Shown here piece after piece: positions 9,252-9,536 of a stretch of DNA of 25,885 nucleotides. Position 1 is the stretch's first letter, and each line of letters begins with the position of its first letter. The stretch comes from Candidatus Odinarchaeota archaeon (GTDB lineage Archaea > Asgardarchaeota > Odinarchaeia > Odinarchaeales > Odinarchaeaceae). The position numbers were made by a program, and so were the translations under genes. Location of the stretch: positions 1-25,885 of the forward strand of contig JAWBON010000014.1 in NCBI GenBank assembly GCA_038826135.1, written 5' to 3'. The notes under the pieces are model-generated. The model did not search any database, had not been told where the DNA came from, and saw only the letters and a list, made by a program, of their open reading frames with translations.

Positions 9252-9536
9252 ATGATAGGGGAAAAAGACATTCAACCGATACTTAAAAATTTACAAAAGT
9301 TCGAGGGGGTAAGAGGGGTAATTATAACAACAACAGAGGGTCTCCCAATAAGCACAACAATAGACCGGGATAAAACTGAGAAAACAGCGGCTCTTGTAAC
9401 ATCACTTGTCGGTAAAGCTAGATCAACGGTGAAAGAATTAGAGGAGGGGGAACTTAAATTCCTAACTATAAACACTTCTAAAGGCGAGGTTCACGTAGCA
9501 CCTGAGGAGGATTATATTCTAATAGTTCTAAAATAG
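9252..9536 (+). CDS. Roadblock protein 2, dynein light chain Roadblock (DYNLRB)-like
   Basis: 94 aa: [46 protein letters not shown]. It ends after the last strand with no C-terminal helix. Confidence 0.88.

Follow-up and report, generated by a model that had tools for sequence, protein, structure and literature searches.

The gene that we designate RBLC7 encodes, in the genome of an Odinarchaeal archaeon, a short Roadblock protein resembling the eukaryotic dynein light chain DYNLRB. This raises the question of what such a protein does, and with which partner, in a cell whose 93% complete genome gave no match to the dynein heavy- and intermediate-chain profiles (PF11540 and PF03028) in a search that was itself without a positive control match. 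The gene is located in a contig stretch of 25,885 nucleotides, the whole of which was analysed and is referred to here as the window (Table 1). The reading frame of RBLC7 is real and intact, and its translation contains all of the motifs quoted in the initial annotation (KARSTVKEL, LKFLTI). The protein matches the Pfam profile Robl_LC7 (PF03259) at 77 bits, against a cut-off of 23, and its model and a fold search likewise place it in the Roadblock fold, whereas its score against the Pfam profile of LAMTOR5 (22.8 bits) is below the cut-off of 27. The AlphaFold2 model of RBLC7 (pLDDT 92) has the order helix-strand-strand-helix-three strands; the chain stops at the fifth strand, and the third, C-terminal helix is absent from the model. 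The DYNLRB-like length of 94 residues and the missing C-terminal helix are thus as the initial annotation had described them. A structural search with the model returned Drosophila LC7, the archaeal structure 7F8F, and human DYNLRB as top matches, with Z scores of 15.1 and 14.7 for the DYNLRB-type structures 3L9K and 3L7H.

Table 1 Features of the Roadblock gene neighbourhood in the window.
Feature	Coordinates	Strand	Description
RB0	8691..9035	-	Full Roadblock, 114 aa; divergent in sequence and evolving fast; transcription directed away from RBLC7
RBLC7	9252..9536	+	Short Roadblock without C-terminal helix, 94 aa; ATG start, stop 9534-9536
RB2	9599..10072	+	MglB-like Roadblock, 157 aa; linker and C-terminal helix
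RB3	10101..10469	+	Generic prokaryotic-type Roadblock, 122 aa
p25/DCTN5-like	10581..11114	+	Left-handed beta-helix, gamma-carbonic-anhydrase type; upstream gene of the pair
p62/DCTN4 homologue	11118..12248	+	376 aa, extra C-terminal Ig-like domain; downstream gene of the pair

The best match of RBLC7 in the PDB is 7F8F, with 91 of the 94 residues identical (97%). This entry is Odin-RBLC7 (OLS18093.1) from Odinarchaeota LCB_4 (Tran et al. 2024 supplement, PMC10933270). The near identity of the sequences and the presence of a single match in the window genome (G000) identify the two proteins as orthologues, and three genus relatives (G301-G303) likewise have a single match, within the same gene order as G000. 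The crystal structure of Odin-RBLC7, determined at 1.83 Å by molecular replacement using DLRB1, is a homodimer without the C-terminal helix; it is closest to DLRB1 and MglB, and the missing helix was proposed to leave a site for the helix of a partner (PMC10933270). Both this protein and its resemblance to DYNLRB are therefore in the literature already, and the finding itself is not new. The interpretation offered in the initial annotation was mostly in print, and the annotation missed both the structure of the orthologue and its comparison with DLRB1. The check that it proposed, of homo- versus heterodimerisation, is largely answered, because an orthologue with 97% identity crystallised as a homodimer (PMC10933270). 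A Roadblock phylogeny, the distribution, and the gene context of Odin-RBLC7 were not found in PMC10933270.

RBLC7 is more similar to DYNLRB than to any other Roadblock group compared. BLASTP aligned it to a macaque DYNLRB1 isoform with 40 of 85 positions identical (47%, E 4e-27), and a global alignment to the same isoform gave 40 of 92 (43.5%), which bears out the identity of roughly 40% to DYNLRB1 that had been estimated by eye. The mean identity to 27 diverse eukaryotic DYNLRB rows is 37%, compared with 17-22% for the remaining Roadblock groups, both Asgard and bacterial, and Odin RBLC7 is one of the two most DYNLRB-like Asgard rows by this measure. The best 150 clusters from an exhaustive search were Asgard proteins or eukaryotic DYNLRB, as judged from their sequences and available names. 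In a tree of 112 rows and 94 columns, for which the eukaryotic rows had been retrieved with RBLC7 itself as the query and from which LAMTOR4/5 were left out, Asgard RBLC7 groups with eukaryotic DYNLRB in a single clade (support 100/98, stem 1.35) apart from the RB0, RB2, and RB3 families and from bacterial Roadblocks, including Deinococcus MglB. Within it, the 27 eukaryotic rows constitute a clade of their own (100/100), with Odin RBLC7 outside. The DYNLRB profile scores RBLC7 at 92 bits and the MglB-like RB2 profile at 7 bits. Approximately unbiased (AU) tests in which RBLC7 was forced to group with MglB/RB2 lowered the likelihood by 22-25 units and did not reject the grouping (p 0.13 and 0.11), since they lacked the power for rejection. 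RBLC7 is also not a member of the MglB-type GTPase-activating proteins: it has no third helix, and RB2 is the MglB-like gene of the locus instead. The expectation that the protein would branch with DYNLRB rather than with MglB-type sequences is thus upheld by the clade and the profiles, with the AU values of 0.11-0.13 beside them. Asgard RBLC7 monophyly was likewise not rejected (p 0.26), and eukaryotes fit both as nested within the Asgard sequences and as their sister; therefore, we make no claim about which Asgard lineage is closest to eukaryotes. There is good support for RBLC7 as the prokaryotic family nearest to DYNLRB; the exact branching is less certain.

Two sets of residues distinguish RBLC7. 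Residues K55, V60, F70, E79, P84, and I91 are common to RBLC7 and DYNLRB and nearly absent from other Roadblock proteins. In helix 2, E43 and A47 are present in 100% of the Asgard sequences, and T50, S51, and G54 in 78-88%; this Asgard-specific surface has not been kept by DYNLRB. The existence of one set shared with DYNLRB and another restricted to Asgard archaea suggests, from sequence conservation, that the protein may have two functional surfaces.

Relatives of RBLC7 detected at E 1e-8 or better are encoded in 351 of 400 Asgard genomes and in 85 of the 90 high-quality ones, mostly as a single copy. Exceptions occur in families f11 and f12 (L100, L101, L111), which have two tandem, diverged RBLC7-like genes rather than one, suggesting by analogy a heterodimer such as LAMTOR4/5 or axonemal LC7a/b. 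A second, diverged RBLC7-like paralogue is located at a separate locus in Thorarchaeia and family f5 (L108, L110). Four loci of Thorarchaeia (L025, L026, L029, L107) contain a gene of about 540 codons between RB0 and RBLC7, the product of which looks Sec23/24-like from its N-terminal zinc motif, as judged by eye.

The initial annotation described the neighbours of RBLC7 correctly as three further Roadblock genes, a beta-helix gene, and a cysteine-rich gene. Among 63 Asgard loci, the genes found most often within 3.5 kb of RBLC7 were RB0 (44 loci, Loki-type genomes included), RB3 (42), RB2 (40), and an MglA-type GTPase (40), counts that are not independent events because the genomes are related. 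The commonest order is RB0 (divergent), RBLC7, RB2, GTPase, RB3, and this run of genes is often flanked by smc-scpAB and uppS. The GTPase gene is positioned between RB2 and RB3 in most other Asgard lineages and is missing from this position in Odin-type loci. Different lineages retain different subsets of these neighbours: Loki-type genomes keep only RB0 beside RBLC7 and encode RB2 and the GTPase elsewhere, whereas in families f7, f9, and f10 the GTPase stays beside RBLC7 without RB2. The smc-scpA-scpB genes (window 1434-6844) are inverted in Odin-type loci relative to other lineages, and the smc gene of the window (1434-5594) appears to carry an intein-like insert just past Walker A, with about 200 residues that are missing from the alignments of its relatives. 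No paper on the cluster of four Roadblocks and MglA, or on a partner of RBLC7, was found in the literature searched, which held few subscription papers.

The MglB-like character of RB2 is evident from its best PDB matches, which include Thermus and Myxococcus MglB, and from its grouping with Deinococcus MglB in the 112-row tree (97/63). Its tail, approximately residues 144-157, is a conserved acidic amphipathic C-terminal helix. The single best PDB match of RB2 is 9JUE; this entry and 9JQ8 are further Roadblock homodimers from MK-D1, released in 2024, and no paper for either was found in the literature searched. The cluster GTPase of the window genome was located at C1:5162-5731, where it is the reciprocal best match of the operon GTPases from five of five genomes; its Arg and Gln motifs are preserved. 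In the closed genome of a relative (G303), the GTPase is about 140 kb from the Roadblock cluster. The relocated Odinarchaeia GTPase gene (C1:5162-5731, L061) is near genes for membrane-complex subunits, and the copy in G299 is interrupted by a single internal stop within the matched region.

The C-terminal helix of Myxococcus MglB binds helix 5 of MglA (PMC6785124), and helix 5 of the Asgard GTPases is basic, as it is in Myxococcus MglA. Complex prediction with the RB2 tail, the GTPase, and the RBLC7 dimer scored 0.47, versus 0.02 for the best control; the control in which the RBLC7 dimer and the RB2 tail were retained and the GTPase was replaced scored 0.01. Among benchmark pairs, 58 of the 80 solved ones and 2 of the 110 mismatched ones passed the mark set for these predictions; of those that passed, only seven solved pairs and both mismatched pairs did so with scores of 0.60 or under. 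The runs have at least 79% of contacts in common, and the partner pLDDT is at least 56. The prediction lends weak support to a docking of the RB2 tail that would depend on the GTPase chain; it may also reproduce what the predictor had learned from the solved MglA-MglB complex. The result is consistent with an MglAB-like core but gives no firm indication of the partner of RBLC7. The RB2 tail helix was considered separately as a ligand of RBLC7: the control score of 0.01 gives this no support and is equally no evidence against binding.

The two genes downstream of RB3 resemble subunits of dynactin. The product of the second is a true homologue of dynactin p62: residues 1-262 have the p62 architecture of a zinc saddle and a split beta-sandwich, the best PDB match of the family profile is dynactin subunit 4 (E 1.1e-6), and p62 ranked first in two structural searches with the model (pLDDT 88), accounting for the top four Foldseek matches. 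Superposition on dynactin p62 aligned 247 residues with a Z score of 13.6 and an rmsd of 3.6. The long helix and loop that wrap around Arp11 and touch beta-actin are missing from the model, which has an 11-residue helix (110-120) there. The first gene is plausibly p25-like. Its longest frame starts at GTG 10554, and ATG 10581 is favoured by the alignment; the zinc histidines are lost, and the DCTN5 profile gives 54-67 bits (cut-off 40) versus 24-39 for ordinary Asgard paralogues, whereas by raw PDB scores gamma-carbonic anhydrase is above DCTN5. Of the earlier description of the two genes as p25-like and p62-like, the p62 part therefore stands firmly (E 1.1e-6, Z 13.6), and the p25 part is plausible. 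The pair is more surprising than the Roadblock protein itself. A 'putative dynactin p62 family' with two members is listed in a supplementary table of Eme et al. 2023. Longer proteins from Loki-type and other Asgard families (L151-L158; open frames of about 460-825 residues) match only the zinc region of the p62-like protein (E 1e-12 to 1e-7), with no beta-helix gene within 1.5 kb; they are possibly more distant relatives of the saddle domain.

The initial annotation saw its added interest in the adjacency of RBLC7 to this pair, from which it could be proposed that RBLC7 and the p25-like and p62-like proteins form a proto-dynein/dynactin accessory module encoded by an operon (9252-12248) and active perhaps at the ends of actin filaments. 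The five genes share one orientation, and as far as the beta-helix gene they are separated by 62, 28, and 111 bases; the homology to p62 is strong, the window genome has an actin gene, and the resemblance of Odin RBLC7 to DYNLRB is among the closest in Asgard archaea. Nevertheless, the pair is within 3.5 kb of RBLC7 in two of the 63 loci, both from the genus of the window, and the claimed added interest is not supported. The p25-like and p62-like genes are adjacent to each other in all eight genomes that show both (Odinarchaeia and family f33), but in four of the eight (G298, G299, G398, G399) the pair is in another neighbourhood, and five related genomes encode the p62-like gene either on a different contig from the Roadblock cluster or at a great distance from it. 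A full-length p62-like gene was detected in nine of 400 genomes, against 351 with RBLC7; therefore, the pair cannot be the general partner of RBLC7. Furthermore, the eukaryotic counterparts sit in different complexes: Roadblock clamps the dynein intermediate chain, whereas p62/p25 are placed on Arp11 at the pointed end of dynactin. We consider such an accessory module very improbable, and the proximity of RBLC7 to the dynactin-like genes probably reflects a rearrangement local to this genus. We attach even less credence to a physical or functional association of RBLC7 with the pair in an archaeal cytoskeleton-associated complex whose operon Odin has preserved; if true, it would mean that a dynein light chain and dynactin pointed-end subunits worked together before dynein existed.

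Two further explanations concern the Roadblock cluster itself. The RBLC7 homodimer could be a platform for the GTPase, with GAP- or GEF-like activity, that binds the MglA-type protein by its helix-2 face in parallel to RB2. The orientation in which GTPases bind Roadblock dimers is conserved, the small, invariant residues of helix 2 are Asgard-specific, and the retention of RBLC7 beside the GTPase without RB2 in f7, f9, and f10 would fit such a role. However, the natural candidate for it is the MglB-like RB2, and the GTPase is gone from the cluster in Odin and Loki-type genomes, which leaves the platform doubtful. RBLC7 could instead be a general dimerisation clamp whose partners are encoded elsewhere, the cluster being only an old neighbourhood by smc-scpAB/uppS. 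RBLC7 is kept in four of the 63 loci where every cluster neighbour is gone, and the housekeeping genes UppS (26 loci) and SMC (22) are frequent within 3.5 kb too, so linkage alone need not mean function. This explanation is unlikely, as the known pairing of Roadblocks with GTPases agrees well with a cluster in which one GTPase and four Roadblocks have stayed together in many Asgard families, and a helix motif like that of the dynein intermediate chain, a weak test, was present in none of 1312 open reading frames.

The explanation that we consider best, with a probability of roughly 60% for its two parts together, is that RBLC7 represents, in Odinarchaea, a Roadblock subfamily that is near-universal in Asgard archaea and has an origin common to eukaryotic DYNLRB, and that it acts in a switch module of the MglA/MglB type as an adaptor that clamps a helix, DYNLRB having been recruited later from the same family. 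The vacant helix site of the RBLC7 homodimer would clamp the helix of a partner, by analogy with the binding of the intermediate chain by DYNLRB and of LAMTOR1 by LAMTOR4/5. Gene order suggests that RBLC7 may be the adaptor or scaffold of an ancient switch module built around a small GTPase and comprising the MglA-type GTPase, the MglB-like RB2, RB0, and RB3, and that one of these proteins is most likely its direct partner. As in Myxococcus, the tail helix of RB2 probably docks on the GTPase. The GTPase gene has been relocated in Odin, and in this genus the separate p25/p62-like pair has become the downstream neighbour. The recruitment of the RBLC7/DYNLRB family to dynein would have followed later, in eukaryotes. 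The link to the module rests on gene order among related, non-independent genomes, and the break-up of the cluster in several lineages, with RB0 only in Loki-type genomes and the moved GTPase in Odin, counts against it.

What the analysis adds to the published structure is that the subfamily is near-universal in Asgard archaea, that no other prokaryotic family is as close to DYNLRB, and that its conserved gene neighbours are a switch of the MglA/MglB type together with two more Roadblocks. An already crystallised protein thereby acquires a list of four candidate partners, which provides a direct test of the role of the dynein light chain ancestor before dynein.

Among known systems, RBLC7 is closest to Odin-RBLC7, which has the same length and comes from another genome within the genus; the window protein differs from it by three substitutions. 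DYNLRB1/2 (LC7) have the same length and topology, but possess basic arginines in strand 3 and a tyrosine in helix 2, both of which RBLC7 lacks, whereas RBLC7 has its own invariant E43 and A47. LAMTOR4/5 of Ragulator are, like RBLC7, short Roadblocks with a vacant helix site (Z 12.9); their identity to RBLC7 is 15-17%, and they form a heterodimer, whereas the RBLC7 orthologue is a homodimer. The bacterial MglA/MglB switch of Myxococcus and Thermus has counterparts in the cluster in the MglA-type GTPase and in RB2, which is MglB-like with a C-terminal helix, while RBLC7 is not the MglB. The Asgard module differs from the bacterial switch in its three extra Roadblocks and, in Odin, in the unlinked position of the GTPase gene.
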